From positions 2,580,001-2,612,000 of the forward strand of contig NC_010296.1 of assembly GCF_000010625.1 (NCBI RefSeq): a DNA stretch of 32,000 nt, in the 5' to 3' direction. Shown here one piece after another: positions 19,364 through 30,653 of the stretch. A program made the translations under genes and the position numbers. Source of the stretch: Microcystis aeruginosa NIES-843 (GTDB lineage Bacteria > Cyanobacteriota > Cyanobacteriia > Cyanobacteriales > Microcystaceae). Below the pieces are notes generated by a model. The model saw nothing but the letters and a program-made list of their open reading frames with translations. It searched no databases and was not told the DNA's origin. Position 1 is the stretch's first letter. Each line of letters starts with the position of its first letter.

Positions 19364-20146
19364 ATGATGTCTCGTACCTATCAAGCTACTGGAATCAATC
19401 TACAAGGAATGACCTTCGGAGAAGCCGATCGCCTCTTAACTATTTTGACCGCCGAGTATGGTTTAATTAGAGCCATCGCTCCAGGTGCGCGCAAGTATAA
19501 ATCTTCCCTCCGGGGTAGAAGTGAACTATTTGTGGTCAATAATCTGTTAATAGTCGCAGGAAAATCCCTAGATAAGGTCGTGCAAGCCGAAACTATCGAA
19601 TCTTATCCCAAATTAAGTCAAAATCTCGCCAAACTCACCGTTAGCCAATACCTCTGCGAACTGGTTTTGGCGATCGCACTGAGCGAACAACCCCAGAGGG
19701 AATTATACGAATTAATCTGCGGCCATCTGGCCAGAATTGAAGTCCTCGACGAGAATCAATACATACTTCCCTACCTTTGTCAAGCAATTTTTCATTTCTT
19801 AATAATTGCCGGCTTAGTGCCGCAAGTCCATAACTGCCTGTTGACGGGAAAAGCTTTAATTGGGGACAATTGCCTAGGATTTAGTTTCGAGGCAGGGGGC
19901 ATAATAGATCTGGCTGCCCTCACAGAAACAATCAACCCGCCCAAAATCGATAGTAAACTGACGCGGCAAGAACTGCAATTACTGCAATGCCTAGGAAAAA
20001 CCGATTTTCCCCCAGAAGAAAACCTTACCTCAGAACTAGCTTGGATTAACCTCGATCGCCTGCTGCGCCGCTATACTCAATATCATCTGGGAAAAACTTT
20101 TCGCTCCTCGGCATTAGTTGAGGGTTTATCTCCCTTAGAATTTTAA
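19364..20146 (+). CDS. recO: DNA repair protein RecO
   Basis: 260 aa. N-terminal OB-fold pattern YQATGINLQGMTFGEADRLLTILTAEYGLIRAIAPGARK is typical of RecO. Confidence 0.85.
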   Translation: MMSRTYQATGINLQGMTFGEADRLLTILTAEYGLIRAIAPGARKYKSSLRGRSELFVVNNLLIVAGKSLDKVVQAETIESYPKLSQNLAKLTVSQYLCELVLAIALSEQPQRELYELICGHLARIEVLDENQYILPYLCQAIFHFLIIAGLVPQVHNCLLTGKALIGDNCLGFSFEAGGIIDLAALTETINPPKIDSKLTRQELQLLQCLGKTDFPPEENLTSELAWINLDRLLRRYTQYHLGKTFRSSALVEGLSPLEF

Positions 20147-20168: not shown

Positions 20169-21659
20169 ATGCAACTGTTTGACTCAGAAACTAGCGACGC
20201 TAATTCTAGCGACTCCTCCACTCCTATTTTTAATTCTTCCGATTCCTCACCGAGGCAATCCGACGCAGAAACCATGAACCGCTTGCCTAAACGTGCGCCC
20301 AAATCCAATCCTAGTCAGGGTTTTGCCCCAGTGCTAAAAAACCCGCGCTTTCTCACTCTCTGGGCGGGGGGAATTTTTTCCCAATTAGCGGATAAATTCT
20401 ATTTAGTCCTGATGATCTCCCTAATTGCCACCCATTACCAAGAAGCCGATCAATCGATTAGCGGCTGGGTATCGGCGATAATGATTGCTAATACAATTCC
20501 GGCGGTGTTAGTGGGTTCGGTGGCGGGTGTATATGTTGATAGATGGTTAAAAAAACAAGTTTTAGTTATTTCTAACCTTTTACGCGGGGCTTTTGTCCTC
20601 GTCATACCCCTATTATTATGGTTAGTGCGCGAGCAAACTTTAGCGGTTCCCCTCGGTTGGTTGCCTGACGGTTTAAGAAATTGGCATTACCGGTTACAGG
20701 GAGAATTTAATTTACCCTTCGGTTTTTTCCTGTTGTTAGTCATTACTTTTCTTGTCTCCACCCTAACCCAATTTTTTGCCCCCGCCGAACAATCTACCCT
20801 GCCATTAGTGGTAAAACGTCGTCATCTTCTACCCGCTAATTCCCTCAACACTTTAACCACCATGGCAGTATTAATTATCGGTTTTGCCATCGGTGAACCG
20901 GTATTAGCTTTTGCTGATAGCATTTTCGGCACGAGAGCCGGACAATTTGATATTGGCAAAGTGATGATTGTCGGTGCTTTTTATATAATTGCCGGTTTAA
21001 TTCTAATTATCCTGCGAACTAGCGAAAAATATGTTATTCCTACCGCAGAACAGCCCCATGTTTGGGAAGATATCCGCGACGGCATTCGTTACCTCAACAA
21101 AAATCATAAAGTTCGTAACGCTCTAATTCAATTAGTCATCTTATTCTGTATTTTTGCTGCTCTATCAGTATTAGCCGTCAGTATGGCGGAAAAACTACCC
21201 GGGTTAAAAGCTTCTCAATTCGGCTTTTTATTAGCCTCCTGTGGTGCAGGAATGGCAGTTAGTGCGATTACTTTGGGTTATTGGGGCCAAAAATTCTCCC
21301 ACACCCAATTAAGTCTCTGGGGTTCCCTGGGTATGGCGGCAGCTTTAATCGGTTTATCTCTAGCCACAAAGAGTTTAATTTTAGCCTTCGCTATGACCGC
21401 TTTATTAGGGATTTTTGCCGCTTTAGTCGGGGTTCCCATGCAAACTACCCTACAGGCAGATACACCCCCCGAAATGCGCGGTAAAGTCTTTGGTTTAGAA
21501 AATAATGCCGTTAATATTGCCCTCTCTTTACCCTTAGCTGTCGCGGGTATCGCCGAAACTCAATTCGGACTCCGACCGGTACTATTAGCTTTAGCAGTTA
21601 TGGCAGTTATCGGCGGCGGTTTTACTTGGTATGTTTCTCGCAATTTATCTAAAGATTAG
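20169..21659 (+). CDS. MFS transporter
   Basis: 496 aa, about 12 hydrophobic segments, GVYVDRW loop motif, Ser/Asp-rich N-terminal tail. Confidence 0.75.
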   Translation: MQLFDSETSDANSSDSSTPIFNSSDSSPRQSDAETMNRLPKRAPKSNPSQGFAPVLKNPRFLTLWAGGIFSQLADKFYLVLMISLIATHYQEADQSISGWVSAIMIANTIPAVLVGSVAGVYVDRWLKKQVLVISNLLRGAFVLVIPLLLWLVREQTLAVPLGWLPDGLRNWHYRLQGEFNLPFGFFLLLVITFLVSTLTQFFAPAEQSTLPLVVKRRHLLPANSLNTLTTMAVLIIGFAIGEPVLAFADSIFGTRAGQFDIGKVMIVGAFYIIAGLILIILRTSEKYVIPTAEQPHVWEDIRDGIRYLNKNHKVRNALIQLVILFCIFAALSVLAVSMAEKLPGLKASQFGFLLASCGAGMAVSAITLGYWGQKFSHTQLSLWGSLGMAAALIGLSLATKSLILAFAMTALLGIFAALVGVPMQTTLQADTPPEMRGKVFGLENNAVNIALSLPLAVAGIAETQFGLRPVLLALAVMAVIGGGFTWYVSRNLSKD

Positions 21660-21669
21660 CGGAACTTTT

Positions 21670-21745
21670 CAGTTATCAGTGATCAGTTATCAGTAATCAG
21701 TAGTTAGGAGTTAGGAGTTAGGAGTTAGGAGTCAGGAGTCAGGAG
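21670..21745. repeat. Compound heptamer arrays: CAGTTAT/CAGTGAT/CAGTAAT, then GAGTTAG x4 and GAGTCAG x2
   Basis: Direct reading immediately 3' of the MFS gene. Confidence 0.9.
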
Positions 21746-21752
21746 ATTGAAT

Positions 21753-21785
21753 AGAAAACGGGTTTCTTGAAGAAACCCGTTTTCT
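21753..21785. repeat. 33-bp palindrome copy 1 (agaaaacgggtttcttGaagaaacccgttttct); possible bidirectional intrinsic terminator
   Basis: 16-bp perfect arms around one central base, with A-run/T-run flanks. Confidence 0.85.
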
Positions 21786-21795
21786 GGATCACCCT

Positions 21796-22260
21796 ATTGC
21801 AGACAAAGAGCGAGCTAAGGTTAAGGCGGAATGTCTGCGCTTGTTAATCACTTTAAGGTTAGATGCGGCGAAAATGGAATTAATTTCTGGATTTATTGAT
21901 ACTTATCTCAATCTAAATCCTGCCGAAGAGATACAATTCCAAGAAGAGATTAGCACATTTAGTCAACCCGTACAGGAGGGAGTTATGCAAATTACCACCA
22001 GTTGGATGCGTCAAGGTATCGAACAAGGTATCGAACAAGGTATTGAACGCGGTATTGAACGCGGTATTGAACGCGGTATCGAACGGGAAAAGACATTGAT
22101 TCTTCGTCAACTTAAACGAAAGTTAGGGGAGATTAATCCTTTATTAGAAACTCAAATTATGGAGTTAAGTATTGATGATGTCGAAGCATTAGGAGAAGCT
22201 TTATTCGACTTCTCTGCGGTTGAAGATTTAATCAATTGGTTAAATACTTTAACTGCCTAG
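21796..22260 (+). pseudogene. 5'-truncated copy of the Rpn-like gene at 23637-24593 that keeps only the C-terminal DUF4351-like module
   Basis: Nucleotide homology to 24141-24593 starts at 21796, 10 bp after palindrome 1, and runs about 30 bp past the stop. The nuclease domain is absent. In-frame ATGs at 21874 and 21985. Confidence 0.8.
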
Positions 22261-22286
22261 CTTTGACGTTAGCGATCGCCTTTTGG

Positions 22287-22319
22287 AGAAAACGGGTTTC
22301 TTAAAGAAACCCGTTTTCT
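22287..22319. repeat. 33-bp palindrome copy 2
   Basis: agaaaacgggtttcttAaagaaacccgttttct. Confidence 0.85.
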
Positions 22320-22385
22320 GCGTAAGTACAGTATATCACAAAAATTGCTTCGGTGGTTCAAGAGAACTGATAACTGATAACTGAA

Positions 22386-23327
22386 ATGACTAACCCAAAT
22401 ACTGATTTTGATACTCCTTGGAAAGATGTCTTAGAAATCTACTTTGAAGACTTTGTTTCCTTCTTTTTTCCTCAAGCTCACGCGGGTATTGATTGGAATC
22501 AAGGCTTTGAATTTCTCGACAAAGAACTTCAACAAGTGGTGCGGGATGCTGAGTTAGGCAAACGTCTCGTCGATAAGTTGGTGAAAATTTATCGTATGGC
22601 GGGAGAAGAGACCTGGGTTTTAATCCACATAGAAATCCAGGGTCAGCGAGAAATTGACTTTGCTGAACGGATGTTTGTCTATTACTACCGTATTTATGAT
22701 CGTTACAGGCGTTCAGTAGCGAGTTTGGCAGTTTTAGGTGATGATAATGCTTCTTGGCGACCCAATCAATTTGAGCGTGAGTTATTTGATTGTCAAGTGA
22801 GTTTTCGCTTTCCGGTCGTCAAGTTGCTAGAATTTAAGCAGCAGTGGTCAGCTTTAGCAGCCAGCCGCAATCCTTTTGCTACAGTCGTGATGGCGCATCT
22901 CCAAGCTTTAGAAACTCGGCAAAACCGAAAAAAGCGCAAAGAAGCGAAATTAGCATTAACTAAACGGTTGTACGAACAGGGTTATCAACGAGAGGATATT
23001 ATCAACCTCTTTAAGTTTATCGATTGGCTGATGAGCTTACCCACTGAATTAGAACAGGAGTTTCAACAGGAATTAAATCAGTACGAGGAGGAAAAACGAA
23101 TGCCTTATATTACCAGTGTTGAAAGAATGGGAATGGAAAAAGGGATGAGAGAATCTGTCATTGATGCCCTTGAGATTCGGTTTGAGAATGTGCCTTCTGA
23201 ACTGGTTAATAAGATTAGCCAAATTCAAGACACTTCTCTTCTGAAAAATCTCTTAAGACAAGCGATTACTCTTGACTCAATCTCAGATTTTCAGGACTAT
23301 TTAAATCAGTTAATCAAACCTGAATAA
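22386..23327 (+). CDS. Rpn/YhgA-like PD-(D/E)XK nuclease (putative transposase family) with a DUF4351-like C-terminus, type A
   Basis: 313 aa. N-terminal DTPWKDVLEIYFEDFVSFFFPQ. Nuclease core VDKLVKIY...WVLIHIEIQGQ...ERMFVYYYRIY. C-terminal MPYITSVERMG...RFE...SLL..LL module. Confidence 0.7.
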   Translation: MTNPNTDFDTPWKDVLEIYFEDFVSFFFPQAHAGIDWNQGFEFLDKELQQVVRDAELGKRLVDKLVKIYRMAGEETWVLIHIEIQGQREIDFAERMFVYYYRIYDRYRRSVASLAVLGDDNASWRPNQFERELFDCQVSFRFPVVKLLEFKQQWSALAASRNPFATVVMAHLQALETRQNRKKRKEAKLALTKRLYEQGYQREDIINLFKFIDWLMSLPTELEQEFQQELNQYEEEKRMPYITSVERMGMEKGMRESVIDALEIRFENVPSELVNKISQIQDTSLLKNLLRQAITLDSISDFQDYLNQLIKPE

Positions 23328-23361
23328 TTCTGGTTTGTCCCCCAGCTTACCCTCAATATCA

Positions 23362-23394
23362 AGAAAACGGGTTTCTTCAAGAAACCCGTTTTCT
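23362..23394. repeat. 33-bp palindrome copy 3
   Basis: agaaaacgggtttcttCaagaaacccgttttct. Confidence 0.85.
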
Positions 23395-23548
23395 GGATTT
23401 CTGATGATCGCCTGTTGGGAAAAATTTGTAGCTTATTATACAGACTTATACGGTGCGTTACGCTAACGCTAACACACCCTAAGAGTGAGCTAACCCGCTC
23501 CACTTTTGTCCACTTTTATTGATTTAATGTCCACTTTTACTGTAAGTC

Positions 23549-23577
23549 TTGTCAAGTAACCTTAAACTTGTTAGAAT
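23549..23577 (+). promoter_or_regulatory. Candidate promoter TTGTCA - 17 nt - TAGAAT for the gene at 23637
   Basis: -35 at 23549-23554 and -10 at 23572-23577. Preceded by three TCCACTTTT direct repeats. Sequence match only. Confidence 0.45.
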
Positions 23578-23636
23578 CAAAAAGTTATTATTTTCTGGTA
23601 GTCATTCATCGCTCAGATTAGTTAAGATGATATTAC

Positions 23637-24593
23637 ATGACTAATAATATTGACCATGATCGCTTATTTAAGGAGTTAATCTCCACCTTTTTTGTCGAAT
23701 TTATTGAGTTATTTTTTCCTCAAGTAATGGATTATTTAGATAGGGACTCGATTACTTTTTTAGACAAAGAAGTATTTACTGATGTCACGGAAGGAGAAAG
23801 GTATGAAAGCGATTTAGTAGCACAAGTTAAGTTTCGCGGAAAAGAATCTTTCTTTCTGATTCATGTCGAGGCGCAGGAAAGTTCTCGAAAATGGTTTAAT
23901 CGGCGAATGTTTACTTATTTTGCTCGCTTTCATGAGAAATTTGTCTTACCGATTTATCCGATTGTAATTTTTTCTTACTCCCAGCCCAAAAAAGAAGCAA
24001 TTAGTCAGTATGTAGTCGATTTTACCGATTTTAAGGTGTTAGAATTTAACTATCAGGTAGTGCAGTTAAATCGATTAAATTGGCGAGATTTTCTCAATCA
24101 GCCAAATCCGGTTGCTTCAGCTTTGATGGCTAAGATGAACATTGCCGAGAAAGAGCGAGCCAAAGTTAAAGCGGAATGTCTGCGCTTGTTAATTACTTTA
24201 AGGTTAAATCCTGCGAAAATGGAATTAATTTCTGGATTTATTGATACTTATCTCAATCTAAATCCGGTGGAAGAGATACAATTTCAAGAAGAGATTAGCA
24301 CATTTAGTCAACCCGTACAGGAGGGAGTTATGCAAATTACCACCAGTTGGATGCGTCAAGGTATCGAACAAGGTATCGAACAAGGTATCGAACAAGGTAT
24401 TGAACGGGGTATTGAACGTGAAAAGACATTGATTCTTCGTCAACTTAAACGCAAGTTAGGGGAGATTAATCCTGCATTGGAAACTAAAATTATGCAGTTA
24501 AGTATTGATGATGTCGAAGCATTAGGAGAAGCTTTATTCGACTTCTCTACGGTTGAAGATTTAATCAATTGGTTAAATACTTTAACTGCTTAG
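23637..24593 (+). CDS. Rpn/YhgA-like PD-(D/E)XK nuclease with a DUF4351-like C-terminus, type B
   Basis: 318 aa. The HDRLFKELISTFFVEFIELFFP N-terminus resembles the HD..FK start of E. coli Rpn proteins. Core FLIHVEAQ...RRMFTYFARF. C-terminal (GIEQ/GIER)5 plus LRQLKRKLGEI module. Confidence 0.7.
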   Translation: MTNNIDHDRLFKELISTFFVEFIELFFPQVMDYLDRDSITFLDKEVFTDVTEGERYESDLVAQVKFRGKESFFLIHVEAQESSRKWFNRRMFTYFARFHEKFVLPIYPIVIFSYSQPKKEAISQYVVDFTDFKVLEFNYQVVQLNRLNWRDFLNQPNPVASALMAKMNIAEKERAKVKAECLRLLITLRLNPAKMELISGFIDTYLNLNPVEEIQFQEEISTFSQPVQEGVMQITTSWMRQGIEQGIEQGIEQGIERGIEREKTLILRQLKRKLGEINPALETKIMQLSIDDVEALGEALFDFSTVEDLINWLNTLTA

Positions 24594-24643
24594 TTCTTAT
24601 GTTAGCGATCGCCTTCTGACAACAACCCACTAAAATTGTCATA

Positions 24644-25672
24644 ATGAAACAAACAACCGCCAATTATGATGAACCCTGGAAAGAAGCATTAACCGAGTAT
24701 TTTGAAGCATTTTTATACTTCTTTTTTCCCGAAGTTCACCAACTAATTGATTGGACAAAAATTCCCGAATCCCTAGAAAAAGAACTCAAACGGATTACCG
24801 CTTCAGCAAGGACAAAAAAACGTTTTGCTGACAAACTCTATAAAGTTTGGTTACTCAGGGGTGAAGAAATCTGGATTTTGATTCATATTGAAATTCAAAG
24901 TCAATACGAAGAAAATTTCTCTCAGAGGATGTATATTTATAACTATCGGGCCTTTGATTTGTATCAGAAACCGGTTATCAGTCTCGCTATATTAGGGGAT
25001 GAACGAGTAAATTGGCGACCAGATTCCTATAATTATACTATCGCTGGTTGTGAAGTCAGCCTCAAATTCCCAACGGTTAAATTACTGGACTATGAGGAAA
25101 ACTGGTCAGAACTAGAAACAAGTAGCAATCCCTTTGCTATAATAGTCATGGCACACCTGAAAACAAAAGCGACTACTGGGAAGCTGCCAGAACGGGAACA
25201 GTGGAAGTGGAGGTTAATCAGAGGATTATATGAAAAGGAGTTCGAGAGGGAACAAATAATTAAATTATTTGAAATCATCGACACAATGATGACTCTATCA
25301 ACTAAATTACAGTCAAGTTTAGAAAGTAAAATCAAACAATTTGAGGAGGAAAGAACCATGCCTTTAATGAGTAATATGGAGTTACGGGGAAGGAAAATTG
25401 GTGAGGAAATTGGGGAGTTACGAGGAATAGAACGCGGTAGGGAAATCGGTAAGGAAATTGGTAAGGAAATTGGTAAGGAAATTGGCGCGTTAGAAAAAAG
25501 CCGCGATGACATAAAAACAGTTTTAACTGTGCGGTTTGGACAGATTTCTTCAGAAATTGAAGAGATAATCGGCAAAATGACTAACCCTACTATCTTAGAA
25601 GAGCTACTAAAATTAGCAGCTACCGCTAATTCTCTCGCAGAATTTAAGCAGTCTTTGGCAAGAATCCAATAA
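24644..25672 (+). CDS. Rpn/YhgA-like PD-(D/E)XK nuclease with a DUF4351-like C-terminus, type A (diverged paralog of 22386-23327)
   Basis: 342 aa. DEPWKEALTEYFEAFLYFFFPE, ADKLYKVW...WILIHIEIQSQ...QRMYIYNYRAF. C-terminal EIGK repeats plus VRFGQISSEI module. Confidence 0.7.
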   Translation: MKQTTANYDEPWKEALTEYFEAFLYFFFPEVHQLIDWTKIPESLEKELKRITASARTKKRFADKLYKVWLLRGEEIWILIHIEIQSQYEENFSQRMYIYNYRAFDLYQKPVISLAILGDERVNWRPDSYNYTIAGCEVSLKFPTVKLLDYEENWSELETSSNPFAIIVMAHLKTKATTGKLPEREQWKWRLIRGLYEKEFEREQIIKLFEIIDTMMTLSTKLQSSLESKIKQFEEERTMPLMSNMELRGRKIGEEIGELRGIERGREIGKEIGKEIGKEIGALEKSRDDIKTVLTVRFGQISSEIEEIIGKMTNPTILEELLKLAATANSLAEFKQSLARIQ

Positions 25673-25688
25673 TCTTATCCTAATATCT

Positions 25689-25721
25689 AGAAAACGGGTT
25701 TCTCAAAGGAACCCGTTTTCT
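25689..25721. repeat. 33-bp palindrome copy 4 (variant agaaaacgggtttctcaaaggaacccgttttct)
   Basis: 12-bp perfect outer arms; the centre differs from copies 1-3. Confidence 0.8.
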
Positions 25722-25803: not shown

Positions 25804-28800
25804 ATGACTTCTACCCTGTTGTCGATTCTTCCTGTTGTTGACGATGTTTTGTTCAATTTCGCTCAATCTGATGGCTTTTGGGCAAATTTGGCCATCGCTT
25901 TTGGCACAAGTTATGATGTGGTTAAGGCGACGGAATTACAACAGCAGTGGCACAGCCGAAATTTTAGTCAAATTCCCCCGATTGAGGTACTCAGTGATGA
26001 AGTTTTGGGGACGGCGAATGGTGCATATTCCAGCAGTACGAATAAGATTTATCTATCAGCATCTTTTTTAAATACGGCCTCGTCAGCAGCGATAATTAAT
26101 GTAATTTTAGAAGAGATTGGGCATTATGTGGATGCTCAAATTAATCCGGTGGATAGTGCGGGAGATGAGGGGGCAATTTTTTCAGAGTTGGTGCAAGGTA
26201 ACAGTCTGGATGTGGCAACCTTAGACGCTTTACGAGCAGAGAATGACCAGACAACAATTATAGTAAATGGGGAAATTATTCAAGTAGAACAGGCAGATTT
26301 TACGGGGACTAATGGTAATGATAATATTACGGGAACTTCTGCAAGTGATAATATTTTTGGGTTAGATGGCAATGATACTTTAAGTGGTCTGGGGGGAAGC
26401 GATAATATTTATGGGGGTAATGGTAATGACTCTCTTAACGGTGGGGATGGAAGTGATTACTTTACCAACGATGCAGGTAATGACACGATAAATGGTGGTA
26501 GTGGGACTGATCGCTATGAGGTTGACTACAGTAGTGCTAGTAGCGGTTTAACCATGACCTACAATACCACTACCGGGAGTGGGACGATTACTGTCGGTAC
26601 AGAAACTGATACCTTTACTTCGATTGAGAGTTTTAACGGGTTTAAGGGAACTGAGTATAATGATGTCATTTTTGGCGGGACAGAAAGTGAATTTTATTAT
26701 TATTATGGCGCTCTCTCAGGTGGAAGTGGTAACGATACTATTTCAGGTAATGCTGGTTTTGACGAAATTTATGGAGAGGATGGGAATGATGTCCTCAATG
26801 GTGGTGCTGATAATGATCAACTTTATGGTGGTAGTGGGAATGATAGCCTCAATGGTGATGCAGGAGATGATTACTTTACCAATGAGGACGGTAATGACAC
26901 GATAAATGGTGGTAGTGGGATTGATCGCTATGAGGCTGACTACAGCTATGCTAGTAGCGGTTTAACCATGACCTACAATACCGCTACCGGGAGTGGGACG
27001 ATTACTGTCGGTACAGAAACTGATACCTTTACTTCGATTGAGAGTTTTGAAGGGTTTAAGGGAACTGAGTATAATGATGTCATTTTTGGCGGGACAGAAA
27101 ATGAATATTATGAGGGTGGACTCAAAGGTGGAGGTGGTAACGATACTATTTCAGGTAATGCTGGTTTTGACAGAATTTATGGAGAAGATGGGAATGATGT
27201 CCTCAATGGGGGTGTAGGTAATGATCAGCTTTATGGTGGTAATGGGAATGATCTCCTCAATGGTGATTCAGGAGATGATTACTTTACCGGCGATGAAGGC
27301 AATAATGACACGATAAATGGTGGTGCTGGTAGTGATAGCTATCATGCTGACTACAGCTATGGTAGTAGTGGTTTAACCATGACCTACGACACCGCTGGGA
27401 GTGGAACGATTACTGTCGGTACGGAAACTGATACCTTTACTTCGATTGAGAGTTTTGATGGGTTTAAGGGAACTGATTATAATGATGTCATTTTTGGCGG
27501 TACAGCTGTTGAGCAACTCTATGGTAGAGAGGGTAACGATACCATTTCAGGTAATGCTGGTAGTGACTACATTTATGGAGAGAATGGGAATGATGTCCTG
27601 AATGGTGGAGATGGTTATGATGATCTTTATGGTGGTAATGGGAATGACACCCTACAAGGAACAGATGGCGGTACAGGAGAATCTGATTATTTAGTAGGAG
27701 GTTCAGGAAGCGATCGCTTTATTCTTGCAGATACGACAAAGACCTTCTATGATGACGGTTTGACAGCTACTGAAGGTACTAGCGACTACGCGGAAATTGC
27801 CGGCTTTAGCACGATTGATGATACAATTCAACTACGCGGTTCAAGTAGTGACTATCTCTTAACAGTTTCTGGTTCCACTACTAATCTCTACATCAACAAA
27901 CCAGGAAGCGAAGCAGATGAACTGATTGCTTATATCAGTAATCAAACAGCATTAAGTCTAACTGCTAGTTATTTTAGCTATGTTTCTAGTCCTACTCTTC
28001 CCAGTATTACTCTTGCGGTTTCTCCCGCAAGTGTTACCGAAGATGGGACAACTAACTTAGTCTATACCTTCACCCGTACCGGAGTAACCACTGATGCTTT
28101 AACTGTTAACTATACAGTTAGTGGGACAGCAACCAATGGAACCGATTACGCTTCTATTCCCACCAGCGTCATCTTTGCGGCTAATTCAGCGACTGCGACG
28201 GTAATCGTTGACCCCACTGCTGACACAACAGTAGAAAGTGATGAAACTGTTATTTTAACCCTCGCTGCGGGGACAGGTTATACAATAGGTACGACCACCC
28301 CAGTGACGGGAACAATTAATAATGATGACAGTGCCTCTATTTCAATCAATGACGTAACTGTTAGCGAAGGAAATAGCGGGACTACCAATGCAGTCTTTAC
28401 CGTCACCCTTTCCAATCCAGTTGATACATCTGTCACCCTCAATTACGCCACAGCCAATGGAACCGCTACGACAGCAGATAATGATTATACAGCGATTGCT
28501 ACTACTCCCTTAACCTTCAATGTTGGGGAGACTTCTAAGACGATTACTGTTGCTGTCAATGGCGATACTAAAGTTGAAAATAACGAGACTTTCTTCGTCA
28601 ATCTGAGTAACTTACAAGCCAATGGTCGTAATGTTACGATAACCGATAATCAAGGACAAGGTACGATTAATGATGACGATAGCACTGTCACCTCGCAACT
28701 CTCCATCAACGACATCACCGTGGTGGAAGGTCAAAATAGTAATGCAATCCTCACCGTCACTGTAAATAATCCAAGTACACAACAAATTACTGTCAACTAT

Positions 28801-28983
28801 ACCACTACAGCCATTGATGCTACCGCTAATGTAGATTACACTAGCAAAACTGGAACTATCACCATTGCACCTAATACTGCCACTGCTACTATTAGCATTC
28901 CCATCCTCAATGATAACCTCAATGAACCTGATGAAGCCTTTACAGTAACCCTGTCAAATGGGAGCATCTCACCTTTGCAATAA
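25804..28983 (+). CDS. Large RTX (hemolysin-type Ca-binding repeat) / Calx-beta protein, 3'-truncated by an IS end
   Basis: 1059 aa. Many GGxGxD nonapeptides, three 136-138 aa tandem modules, three Calx-beta-like domains from about 28002. The last 7 codons and the stop come from the IS terminal repeat starting at 28960. Confidence 0.8.
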   Translation: MTSTLLSILPVVDDVLFNFAQSDGFWANLAIAFGTSYDVVKATELQQQWHSRNFSQIPPIEVLSDEVLGTANGAYSSSTNKIYLSASFLNTASSAAIINVILEEIGHYVDAQINPVDSAGDEGAIFSELVQGNSLDVATLDALRAENDQTTIIVNGEIIQVEQADFTGTNGNDNITGTSASDNIFGLDGNDTLSGLGGSDNIYGGNGNDSLNGGDGSDYFTNDAGNDTINGGSGTDRYEVDYSSASSGLTMTYNTTTGSGTITVGTETDTFTSIESFNGFKGTEYNDVIFGGTESEFYYYYGALSGGSGNDTISGNAGFDEIYGEDGNDVLNGGADNDQLYGGSGNDSLNGDAGDDYFTNEDGNDTINGGSGIDRYEADYSYASSGLTMTYNTATGSGTITVGTETDTFTSIESFEGFKGTEYNDVIFGGTENEYYEGGLKGGGGNDTISGNAGFDRIYGEDGNDVLNGGVGNDQLYGGNGNDLLNGDSGDDYFTGDEGNNDTINGGAGSDSYHADYSYGSSGLTMTYDTAGSGTITVGTETDTFTSIESFDGFKGTDYNDVIFGGTAVEQLYGREGNDTISGNAGSDYIYGENGNDVLNGGDGYDDLYGGNGNDTLQGTDGGTGESDYLVGGSGSDRFILADTTKTFYDDGLTATEGTSDYAEIAGFSTIDDTIQLRGSSSDYLLTVSGSTTNLYINKPGSEADELIAYISNQTALSLTASYFSYVSSPTLPSITLAVSPASVTEDGTTNLVYTFTRTGVTTDALTVNYTVSGTATNGTDYASIPTSVIFAANSATATVIVDPTADTTVESDETVILTLAAGTGYTIGTTTPVTGTINNDDSASISINDVTVSEGNSGTTNAVFTVTLSNPVDTSVTLNYATANGTATTADNDYTAIATTPLTFNVGETSKTITVAVNGDTKVENNETFFVNLSNLQANGRNVTITDNQGQGTINDDDSTVTSQLSINDITVVEGQNSNAILTVTVNNPSTQQITVNYTTTAIDATANVDYTSKTGTITIAPNTATATISIPILNDNLNEPDEAFTVTLSNGSISPLQ
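26428..27645 (+). repeat. Three tandem 396-414 bp coding repeats inside the RTX gene
   Basis: Units start at 26428, 26842 and 27250. They include long identical runs such as gggacgattactgtcggtacagaaactgatacctttacttcgattgagagtttt. Confidence 0.9.
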
Positions 28984-29423: not shown

Positions 29424-30653
29424 AGCTAAAACGCACTTAAACCACCTAAAATAGAAATAGTAATTTTAGAAAAATCCTACTTATGCCAGCAAAAGATTTC
29501 CTAGACTTAGAAGAAAAGAAAAACTTACAAAAAGCTCTTAAAGAAGAAGAAAGAGCAGAGGTTAGGGAAAGAATTTTAATGTTTCTCTTGCTAAACGACG
29601 GAAAAACTCAACGAGAAATAGCTGACTTTATTGGCTGTTCACTCAAAACGGTCGCCCCTTGGTGTGTTCACGGTGATCCTAACAATTTAGAAAGTCTAGA
29701 AGATGGGAGAAAAAATGGAAATCATAAAAAAGCCACAGAGGAATATATTAATTTACTATTAAAAATAGTTGATGAAGACCCGAAGGAATTTGGATATGAA
29801 TTCGGGAGATGGACAGCGGCAAGATTAGCAGAGCATCTAGAAAAGGAAACAAGAATTAAACTGAGTGGCTCGCAAGTGAGAAGAATATTGAGAAGAAAAA
29901 AGTATGTGTATATCTGGGCGAAATATAGTCTAGAAGATAAGCAAGACAAGAAATTAAGAAAAGCATTTAAAGAAAAATTAGATGAATATTTAAGGTTGGC
30001 TAAAGAAAAGCCAGAGTCAATCCAGGTATGGTTTTGGGACGGGGCTTTCAAGGTGGCGACGCAGGTTCGCCACACAGCCCCTCATGAGTGTGGATTTAGT
30101 TTGAGAGTAATAAGAAGGAGAGCTTGGACAAAAAAAGGAAAGCGAAAAAAAGTGAATGGACAAAGAAAAAGAGGAAGGGTGAATGTGATGGGAGCCTTAA
30201 GATATAATGACAAAAAACGAGTCTGTTTTATGATCAAAAAAGGAAATTCAGAAACTTTCCATGAACAATTAAAGAAACTTCATGAAGAGATTCGTCAAGA
30301 ATGGATAAACTTGGGAAATCTGCCCGAAGATTTTCGAGAAAAAGGACCGAAAATTATCATCATATTAGACAATGCTAGTTATCACAAAAAGAAAGATGTT
30401 ATTGAGCAGGTGGAAAAAGAGTTGCCCAATATTAGGCTAGAGTTTTTACCAGCTTATAGTCCAGATTACAACCTAATAGAATTAGTGTGGCATTCCGCTA
30501 AAGAGTACATAGCTAATCGAGAATTTGAAAATAAAGAAGAACTGGAAAAAGTAGTCAATCAGCTTTTAAATGAAGGGGGATTGATTATTAAATGGAGTAG
30601 AAAACTTAAAAATAAGGGTAATGCTGTCAATGTAACTTAAATGCGTAAAAGCT
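29424..30653 (+). mobile_element. IS630-family insertion sequence nested in the ISKra4-like transposase gene
   Basis: 1230 bp with imperfect terminal repeats (agctaaaacgcacttaa / agcttttacgcatttaa). TA duplication at 29422-29423 and 30654-30655. Removing it restores ...GDGHDGIWNLF... in frame. Confidence 0.8.
29483..30640 (+). CDS. IS630-family DDE transposase carrying a 45-bp in-frame insertion at the first catalytic motif
   Basis: 385 aa. N-terminal HTH, DNASYH and YSPDYNLIELVW motifs. The expected WDECGF reads WD-GAFKVATQVRHTAPH-ECGF. Confidence 0.8.
   Translation: MPAKDFLDLEEKKNLQKALKEEERAEVRERILMFLLLNDGKTQREIADFIGCSLKTVAPWCVHGDPNNLESLEDGRKNGNHKKATEEYINLLLKIVDEDPKEFGYEFGRWTAARLAEHLEKETRIKLSGSQVRRILRRKKYVYIWAKYSLEDKQDKKLRKAFKEKLDEYLRLAKEKPESIQVWFWDGAFKVATQVRHTAPHECGFSLRVIRRRAWTKKGKRKKVNGQRKRGRVNVMGALRYNDKKRVCFMIKKGNSETFHEQLKKLHEEIRQEWINLGNLPEDFREKGPKIIIILDNASYHKKKDVIEQVEKELPNIRLEFLPAYSPDYNLIELVWHSAKEYIANREFENKEELEKVVNQLLNEGGLIIKWSRKLKNKGNAVNVT

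Follow-up and report, generated by a model that had tools for sequence, protein, structure and literature searches.

A tandem array of Rpn-like genes was analyzed in a 32,000-nt stretch of Microcystis aeruginosa NIES-843 DNA (contig NC_010296.1, positions 2,580,001 to 2,612,000; this whole stretch is termed the window, and all coordinates below count from its first letter). The array, on the + strand at 21.8-25.7 kb, consisted of three full-length genes for divergent nucleases of the Rpn family (YhgA-like, PD-(D/E)XK) and a 5'-truncated copy. From each of the three, two products are most likely made, a long nuclease (L form) and a small putative antitoxin (S form) started internally at a conserved in-frame ATG, and the array would accordingly be a gene-within-gene system of the RpnL/RpnS type. 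In the RpnL/RpnS system, an internal start gives rise to RpnS, which inhibits the toxic nuclease RpnL (Zhong et al. 2023, PNAS; PMC10400941).

The open reading frame (ORF) listing and direct reading resolved the array into three intact paralogous ORFs and the truncated copy, all on the + strand: (i) A1 (22386..23327; 313 aa), a full-length type A gene encoding a putative RpnL-type nuclease; (ii) B (23637..24593; 318 aa), a full-length type B gene with a DUF4351 C-terminus; (iii) A2 (24644..25672; 342 aa), a second type A gene; and (iv) B' (21796..22260), a type B copy that lacked the nuclease domain and corresponded to B residues 169-318. A1 and A2 were paralogs with 40% identity, and type A and type B proteins had diverged to ~25% identity. 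B' was a partial duplicate of B: the direct repeats D2/D3 were 92-94% identical to 24141-24618 with an offset of one 12-nt unit, and the B' protein showed 91.6% identity to B residues 169-318 (BLASTP). A2 began 50 nt after B with no hairpin in between, so B and A2 are possibly co-transcribed.

All four members carried a GGAGG Shine-Dalgarno (SD) core followed by an in-frame ATG (+ strand throughout; kcal/mol values are predicted duplex energies with the 16S 3' tail, i.e., the anti-SD): (i) GAGGAGG 23085-23091 and ATG 23100 (codon 239; site 23085..23102; spacer 8 nt; -11.6 kcal/mol), opening a 75-aa nested ORF (23100-23327) in A1; (ii) GAGGAGG 25343-25349 and ATG 25358 (codon 239; site 25343..25360; spacer 8 nt; -11.5 kcal/mol), opening a 104-aa nested ORF (25358-25672) in A2; (iii) AGGAGG 24319-24324 and ATG 24330 (codon 232; site 24319..24332; spacer 5 nt; -11.4 kcal/mol), opening an 87-aa nested ORF (24330-24593) in B; and (iv) AGGAGG 21974-21979 and ATG 21985 (site 21974..21987; spacer 5 nt; -11.4 kcal/mol), the start of a free-standing 91-aa S-type ORF (21985-22260) in B'. 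Direct reading agreed at each given coordinate with the preliminary description of this DNA, which had placed GGAGG 5-8 nt before the ATGs at 21985, 23100, 24330, and 25358, had assigned codon 239 to both type A genes, had given the nested ORFs as 75-104 aa (here 75, 104, 87, and 91 aa), and had listed the residue contexts EEEKR, EEERT, and QEGV. The internal SD of A1 was GAGGAGGAA, with GAAGAAGAA as its synonymous SD-mutated counterpart.

GGAGG occurred 42 times on both strands of the window and was followed by ATG within 4-10 nt in six cases, four of which were the sites above. Just 2.7% of positions across the window reached a duplex energy of -10 kcal/mol or lower. At their annotated starts, the full-length genes of the array gave -1.4 to -3.2 kcal/mol, and among 23 ORF starts in the window (ORFs of at least 120 aa; these were longest-ORF start codons, and some true starts may lie farther downstream) the best value was -7.5 kcal/mol and most were weaker than -3. 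The four internal sites were the strongest SD-plus-ATG sites in the window, and thus the best ribosome-binding sites of 32 kb were found inside genes, at -11.4 to -11.6 kcal/mol. SD-poor initiation is typical of cyanobacteria, many of whose genes start without an SD; the weak ORF-start SDs in the window were consistent with this, and the four internal sites stood out against them. By alignment, these sites are not independent and represent the conservation of one ancestral site rather than recurrence, because B' duplicated B, A1 and A2 were paralogs, and B Met232 aligned with type A Met239 in both BLASTP and hhalign. Independent convergent occurrence in types A and B was rejected on the same two alignments, which indicate an inherited site.

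The sequence comparison was then applied to the homologs of A1, 3,005 of which were found in the database, almost all cyanobacterial and named 'cytosolic protein' or 'Rpn family recombination-promoting nuclease/putative transposase'; the closest genomic match came from a Microcystis aeruginosa metagenome-assembled genome (96% identity). All of the 122 type A proteins compared (122/122), with identities of 58-97%, had the internal Met, and at the DNA level (84 genes from 80 genomes) the Met codon was ATG in 83 genes and GTG, also a start codon, in the remaining one. Expected SD counts were obtained by synonymously re-coding the same residues with each gene's own codon usage, an SD match being sought within -17..-4. 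An SD core of at least 4 nt was observed in 84/84 type A genes against 44 expected (100% vs 53%), and a match of at least 5 nt in 61/84 against 15.8 expected (73% vs 19%). A match of at least 5 nt was present at 74% of internal sites; within these genes, it occurred at 2.8% of annotated start codons and at 3.2% of the remaining in-frame ATGs.

These counts bear on the possibility that GGAGG arises only incidentally from the coding of a conserved acidic linker (E-E or Q-E), with the Met being structural and no ribosome starting there. The peptide E-E-E-[RK]-R-M-P-Y-I-T-S-V-E-R was itself highly conserved, and when its residues alone were resampled synonymously, 53% of the resampled sequences already had a core of 4 nt or more, both of which favor this explanation; the observed share was 100%, however, and at 5 nt or more it was 73% against 19% expected. 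The codon choice in 71 unique type A sequences was also position-specific: GAG and GAA numbered 57 and 6 at Glu codon -5 and 45 and 4 at Glu codon -4, both inside the SD core, but 14 and 33 at the adjacent Glu codon -3, outside the core. GAG thus made up ~90% at the two core Glu codons only, against a gene-wide share of 32% among Glu codons, and the next Glu codon stayed at background. Moreover, the core persisted where residues had changed to A, S, G, T, Q, K, or D, the type A contexts including EEE, QEE, EAE, EES, EGE (GAAGGAGAA), EQE (GAGCAGGAG), EET, and QED, sometimes through a register shift. The linker explanation is accordingly given little credence; the synonymous-site comparison across homologs strongly upheld the earlier proposal that GGAGG goes beyond what the amino acids require, and a maintained internal start remains the preferred interpretation.

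The predicted mRNA folding at the internal site was weaker than elsewhere in the type A genes (-6.75 vs -10.04 kcal/mol; Wilcoxon p = 5e-12). Ribosome pausing has been proposed as a role of SD-like sequences inside genes, and the motif coincided precisely with the junction of the nuclease and helical domains, where a programmed elongation pause could aid nuclease folding with no separate protein being made. Such a pause would depend neither on an ATG (or GTG) kept invariant 5-8 nt downstream nor on reduced mRNA structure, it would leave unexplained the free-standing genes that begin at that very Met (see below), and the equivalent site in E. coli rpnA is a start verified by mutagenesis (PMC10400941); a pause is therefore considered very unlikely.

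Type B homologs numbered >4,000 in the database, mostly annotated DUF4351, and the motif VMQITTSWM around the internal Met was conserved among them. In the sampled type B DNA, the sequences before the ATG were CAGGAGGGA, CAGGAGTC, CAGGAGCAA, CAGGAGGAT, AAGGAGGAA, CGGGAGGAA, CAGGAGGCA, and CAGGAGAAA, and the core was kept in residue contexts including QEG, QES, QEQ, QED, KEE, REE, QEA, and QEK; the metagenome scan returned only type B relatives of at least 70% identity and genes were added singly, so that DNA diversity was thinner than for type A.

Stand-alone genes gave a further view of the site. A search with the B' small ORF returned many short DUF4351 proteins, and at least 24 of 120 such proteins started exactly at the internal Met. 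In a Trichormus gene (L171), a stop codon was found 21 codons upstream of this Met with no preceding nuclease domain, and the SD was kept (acaGGAGGacgttATG); in L175, S copies were arranged in tandem with caGGAGGatgttATG before each. Since stand-alone genes started at the same Met with the SD kept, the site appears to be a working start, not a pause site or a fossil; the same observation tells once more against the linker by-product. The fossil alternative holds that the SD and ATG are left over from an old nuclease-DUF4351 fusion and are now unused in the fused genes. It draws on the existence of separate DUF4351 genes and on the fusion and separation of nuclease and DUF4351 in both directions reported by Zhong et al. 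(PMC10400941), but an unused signal would be expected to decay synonymously, whereas this one was held across proteins of ~25% identity and as far as E. coli rpnA, with a third-position bias that was position-specific. We regard the fossil as highly improbable, and a start in current use as the better account of the fused genes.

According to Zhong et al. (PMC10400941), RpnS can be a separate gene annotated DUF4351, and such genes were equated with RpnS. The array resembled stand-alone DUF4351 (PF14261) genes and E. coli YpaA (RpnESs) in that B' and the nested B ORF were DUF4351 proteins and in that the free-standing cyanobacterial genes shared the Met start and the SD; it differed from them in that three of the four S units in the window were nested inside full-length genes, and in that the type A S module was unrecognised by the Pfam DUF4351 model and was linked via profile comparison alone. 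One stand-alone DUF4351 gene, encoding 85 aa in Anabaena (L173, 1-2758), lay beside HicB-like antitoxin, GmrSD_N, and HEPN_MAE_28990 genes, a defence-island-like neighbourhood in contrast to that of the window.

The C-terminal modules were assigned as follows. B and B' matched Pfam DUF4351 (PF14261) at 8.6e-22 (77.4 bits) and 3.3e-21 (75.5 bits), respectively, against a cut-off of 25. The type A proteins gave no match to the Pfam DUF4351 model, but their C-terminus aligned Met-to-Met with the type B DUF4351 module in hhalign (probability 96.3%, E = 1.5e-9), the sole large gap being the repeat region (see below); the label 'DUF4351-like', which the preliminary description had applied to the type A C-terminus, is justified by this alignment. 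The AlphaFold2 (AF2) models of both S forms were confident (predicted local distance difference test scores 86 and 77) and displayed a long first helix and then three short ones. Some type A genes of Coleofasciculus and relatives (L018, L024, L026, L033, L048, and L006) contained two tandem DUF4351-like modules after the internal Met, with nested ORFs of 139-157 aa and with 3-5 GRQE repeats in the first module.

Profile comparison places the N-terminal domains as divergent YhgA/Transposase_31 nucleases (PF04754, TIGR01784, and COG5464). The window proteins themselves stayed below threshold: B reached 3.5e-4 for PF04754 and 4.5e-5 for TIGR01784, A2 reached 5e-3, and A1 had no Pfam match and a non-significant TIGR01784 match (E = 0.06). 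Among family members, PF04754 was matched by 22/27 of type B (best 8e-8) and 20/25 of type A (best 2.7e-6), and NCBI called close homologs 'Rpn family recombination-promoting nuclease'. In hhalign, the B profile gave E = 2.5e-4 against E. coli RpnA and 6e-5 against RpnC, with B D59/E78/Q80 aligned to RpnA D63/E82/Q84 in the catalytic D/E-x-Q region; the type A motif D63...E83-x-Q85 was invariant.

The nested proteins contained four-residue repeats encoded by 12-nt units and beginning 10-13 residues after the Met: (i) B had 5.1 copies at 24357..24417 (+ strand), (GIEQ)x3(GIER)x2, from residue 11 of B-S, i.e., 10 residues after Met232; (ii) B' had 5.9 copies at 22015..22085 (+ strand), (GIEQ/GIER)x6, one unit more than B; and (iii) A2 had 4.2 copies at 25436..25485 (+ strand), (EIGK)n. 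In the AF2 model, the B repeat was located in the long first helix (H2-43). Repeat number varied from ~2 to 9 among Microcystis copies of at least 82% identity, giving nested ORFs of 75-135 aa mostly in 4-aa steps; EIGK was present in 3 to 9 copies in near-identical metagenomic A2-like genes, the GRQE repeat number was likewise variable in Coleofasciculus, and A1 and L001 differed by one 4-aa indel. In addition, the A2-like nested proteins from Microcystis metagenomes (L102, L103, L109, and L096) had the N-terminal helix and EIGK repeats in common with 25358-25672, but their distal C-terminus was either RFGQISSEIEEIIGK or RLGDIPGDIGQCLND, which were mutually unrelated; these sequences suggest that the tail was swapped modularly on top of the change in repeat number. 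NCBIfam FliH matches at 21841-22260 and 23637-24593 were rejected as weak artefacts of the G-I-E-x-G repeats. Many stand-alone DUF4351 proteins (P0241-P0360) were named 'flagellar biosynthesis/type III secretory pathway protein FliH' by the Joint Genome Institute, and this naming looks like repeat-driven misannotation. A 161-aa ORF (25090-25575, - strand) antisense to A2 read through the 12-nt repeats as (PISL)n and is almost certainly a repeat artefact, not a gene.

The preliminary description had stated that small proteins made from internal starts are reported to neutralise toxic Rpn nucleases in E. coli and to act in phage defence, and this account is accurate: besides the neutralisation of RpnL described above, RpnP2 protects against phage, the four-residue (dodecamer) repeats start 8-20 residues after the RpnS Met, are strain-variable, and set L-S specificity, and Rpn arrays arise through tandem duplication (PMC10400941). 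The array and the E. coli RpnA-E/RpnP2 genes shared (i) an N-terminal YhgA-type PD-(D/E)XK nuclease with D...E-x-Q aligned; (ii) an in-frame internal start near codon 240 with the SD coded at codons -4/-3, namely AAGGAG-6 nt-ATG (cacAAGGAGagtttaATG; K-E-S-L-M244) in rpnA and CAGGAGG-5 nt-ATG (Q-E-G-V-M232) in type B, in the layout [Q/K]-E-x-V-M; (iii) possibly a small helical C-terminal product with a long first helix, which for the array is an AF2 prediction; (iv) 12-nt/four-residue repeats 8-20 residues after the Met, strain-variable in number, the window repeat GIE[KQR] being RpnC KGIE in another register; and (v) a tandem array with an extra orphan S copy, B' being the counterpart of the orphan rpnSs genes and retaining the SD, the ATG, and the S ORF alongside the three full-length paralogs. 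Two of these hallmarks, the variable four-residue repeats and the stand-alone S genes, had gone uncited in the preliminary description. The array differed from the E. coli genes in that it belongs to a cyanobacterium poor in SDs, with L starts that lack an SD altogether, and in that the S forms were larger than RpnAS (75-104 aa with four AF2-predicted helices vs 49 aa with three).

By homology, we infer translation from the internal ATG, toxicity of L, its neutralisation by S, and a role in cyanophage defence. In the system proposed, L would be translated weakly from the annotated ATG without an SD, and the small all-helical C-terminal S (75-104 aa) would be translated strongly from the conserved internal ATG with its strong SD. 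S would use its long first helix to pair with the C-terminal domain of its own L, which is identical to S, and the toxic nuclease would thereby be held inactive; the repeat number in the first helix would set which S fits which L, and B' may serve as an S gene standing on its own, comparable to ypaA/rpnESs of E. coli.

A small protein might also be made without being an antitoxin, for example as a positive partner or assembly subunit, or as a DNA-binding regulator. Cas11d, produced from an internal start within cas10d in the type I-D CRISPR system of Synechocystis (as cited in PMC10400941), is such a case: it is likewise a cyanobacterial small C-terminal protein from an internal start of a defence gene, but it belongs to an unrelated protein family and is a required positive subunit, not an inhibitor. 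The computed results do not separate inhibition from activation, but the antitoxin hallmarks of Zhong et al. were all present, namely a dimerisation helix that carries repeats, variation in the number of these repeats, and orphan copies of S, and they make a non-antitoxin role improbable; an antitoxin S remains the favored assignment.

Several observations weigh against an RpnL/RpnS-type system. First, the sequences were very divergent: besides the nuclease domains lying below the Pfam/TIGRFAM cut-offs, the S modules gave a non-significant hhalign comparison with RpnAS, Foldseek searches of the PDB with the two AF2 S models gave no match below E 1 and did not recover RpnAS 7TH0, and the match of the S module to the RpnC C-terminus was short and of low complexity (E = 2.4e-4). 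Long-helix matches in Foldseek (coronavirus spike and MLLE domains) were rejected as spurious, none being below E 1, and both family profiles had no relevant match among the PDB sequences. Second, SD-less starts are common in cyanobacteria, so the contribution of a strong SD in this host is an assumption. Third, a difference from RpnL/RpnS was that no internal promoter was evident: a sigma-70 consensus scan of the + strand over ~300 nt upstream of each internal ATG found no site, the consensus being one not tuned to cyanobacteria. Fourth, many homologs were close kin (Nostoc and Microcystis), and the raw type A counts exceed the number of independent events; among 64 unique upstream sequences, a match of at least 5 nt was present in 49 against 12.7 expected. 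Fifth, the type B relatives L161 and L165 had a weaker CAGGAA, with a 4-nt AGGA core only. Finally, the window neighbours included housekeeping genes (RecO, a major facilitator superfamily [MFS] transporter, and a Ser/Thr kinase) with no obvious defence island, defence-island enrichment being a statistical property of the family that is not demanded of each locus, and PADLOC gave no Rpn-type match on the window, having no matching model.

A wider interpretation is tentative, and we consider it possible but rather doubtful: the internal start may be an ancestral, superfamily-wide Rpn feature, the S:L ratio may be fixed purely translationally, and orphan S copies may serve as a reservoir of alternative specificities or as decoys. 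The ancestral part rests on the SD occupying matching codon positions in the type B genes of cyanobacteria and in E. coli rpnA. For the ratio, the near-perfect SD would drive S and the SD-less start would drive L from a single mRNA without an internal promoter; for the orphan copies, B' with six repeat units against five in B would be such a reservoir or decoy rather than a spare antitoxin.

The preliminary description had named no known equivalent for this cyanobacterial family, a novelty claim that is to be tempered. No cyanobacterial description of an Rpn gene-within-gene system was found in the literature searched; however, Rpn is known from 34 bacterial phyla, separate DUF4351 RpnS genes had already been reported (PMC10400941), and both a commentary by Koonin and Zhong et al. 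(PMC10400941) anticipated the breadth of the mechanism. With the present analysis, the RpnL/RpnS gene-within-gene principle would come to include two cyanobacterial families of very large size (>3,000 and >4,000 homologs), whose members are presently named 'cytosolic protein', 'DUF4351 domain-containing protein', 'putative transposase', or, wrongly, 'FliH', and the analysis suggests an annotation rule for both, namely a second coding sequence from the conserved Met. The synonymous-site evidence indicates that the internal start was maintained over deep divergence, supporting the idea of a general mechanism in the Koonin commentary. Bloom-forming Microcystis would possess a multi-copy, hypervariable candidate anti-cyanophage system with strain-dependent repeat numbers. 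This amounts to an annotation-level advance and an experimental lead for Microcystis-cyanophage biology, with no new mechanism or principle.

The array was flanked upstream by RecO (19364-20146) and the MFS transporter (20169-21659), and downstream, directly, by a gene for a 1,059-aa protein with GGxGxD-type and Calx-beta-like repeats recognised by eye (25804-28983; a large Ca-binding repeat protein), followed by an IS630-type DDE_3 transposase with helix-turn-helix domains (29483-30640); a rhodanese gene was also among the neighbours. The sole PADLOC match was a single weak 'putative invertase' over the repeat helix.

A palindromic hairpin, GAAAACGGGTTTC-N5-GAAACCCGTTTTC, was present as a 31-nt perfect palindrome in four copies (21754-21784, 22288-22318, 23363-23393, and 25690-25720). 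These were its sole matches in the window (0 expected) and were all located between Rpn-like gene units, with none between B and A2. The RNA fold of the palindrome was -24.4 kcal/mol (z = -6.1), and the palindrome was also seen beside homologs of these genes at 31 further loci, most of them Microcystis-like. It is probably either a terminator that moves together with the unit of duplication or one of the small palindromic repeats. In addition, heptamer tandem repeats (TCAGTTA)n and (AGTTAGG)n were located just upstream of B' (21667-21745), with the reverse complement (AACTGAT)x3 immediately before the A1 start codon (22362-22386). These heptamer repeats formed a 25-nt inverted repeat (92% complementary) bracketing B', which could mark the recombination or insertion event that produced B'.

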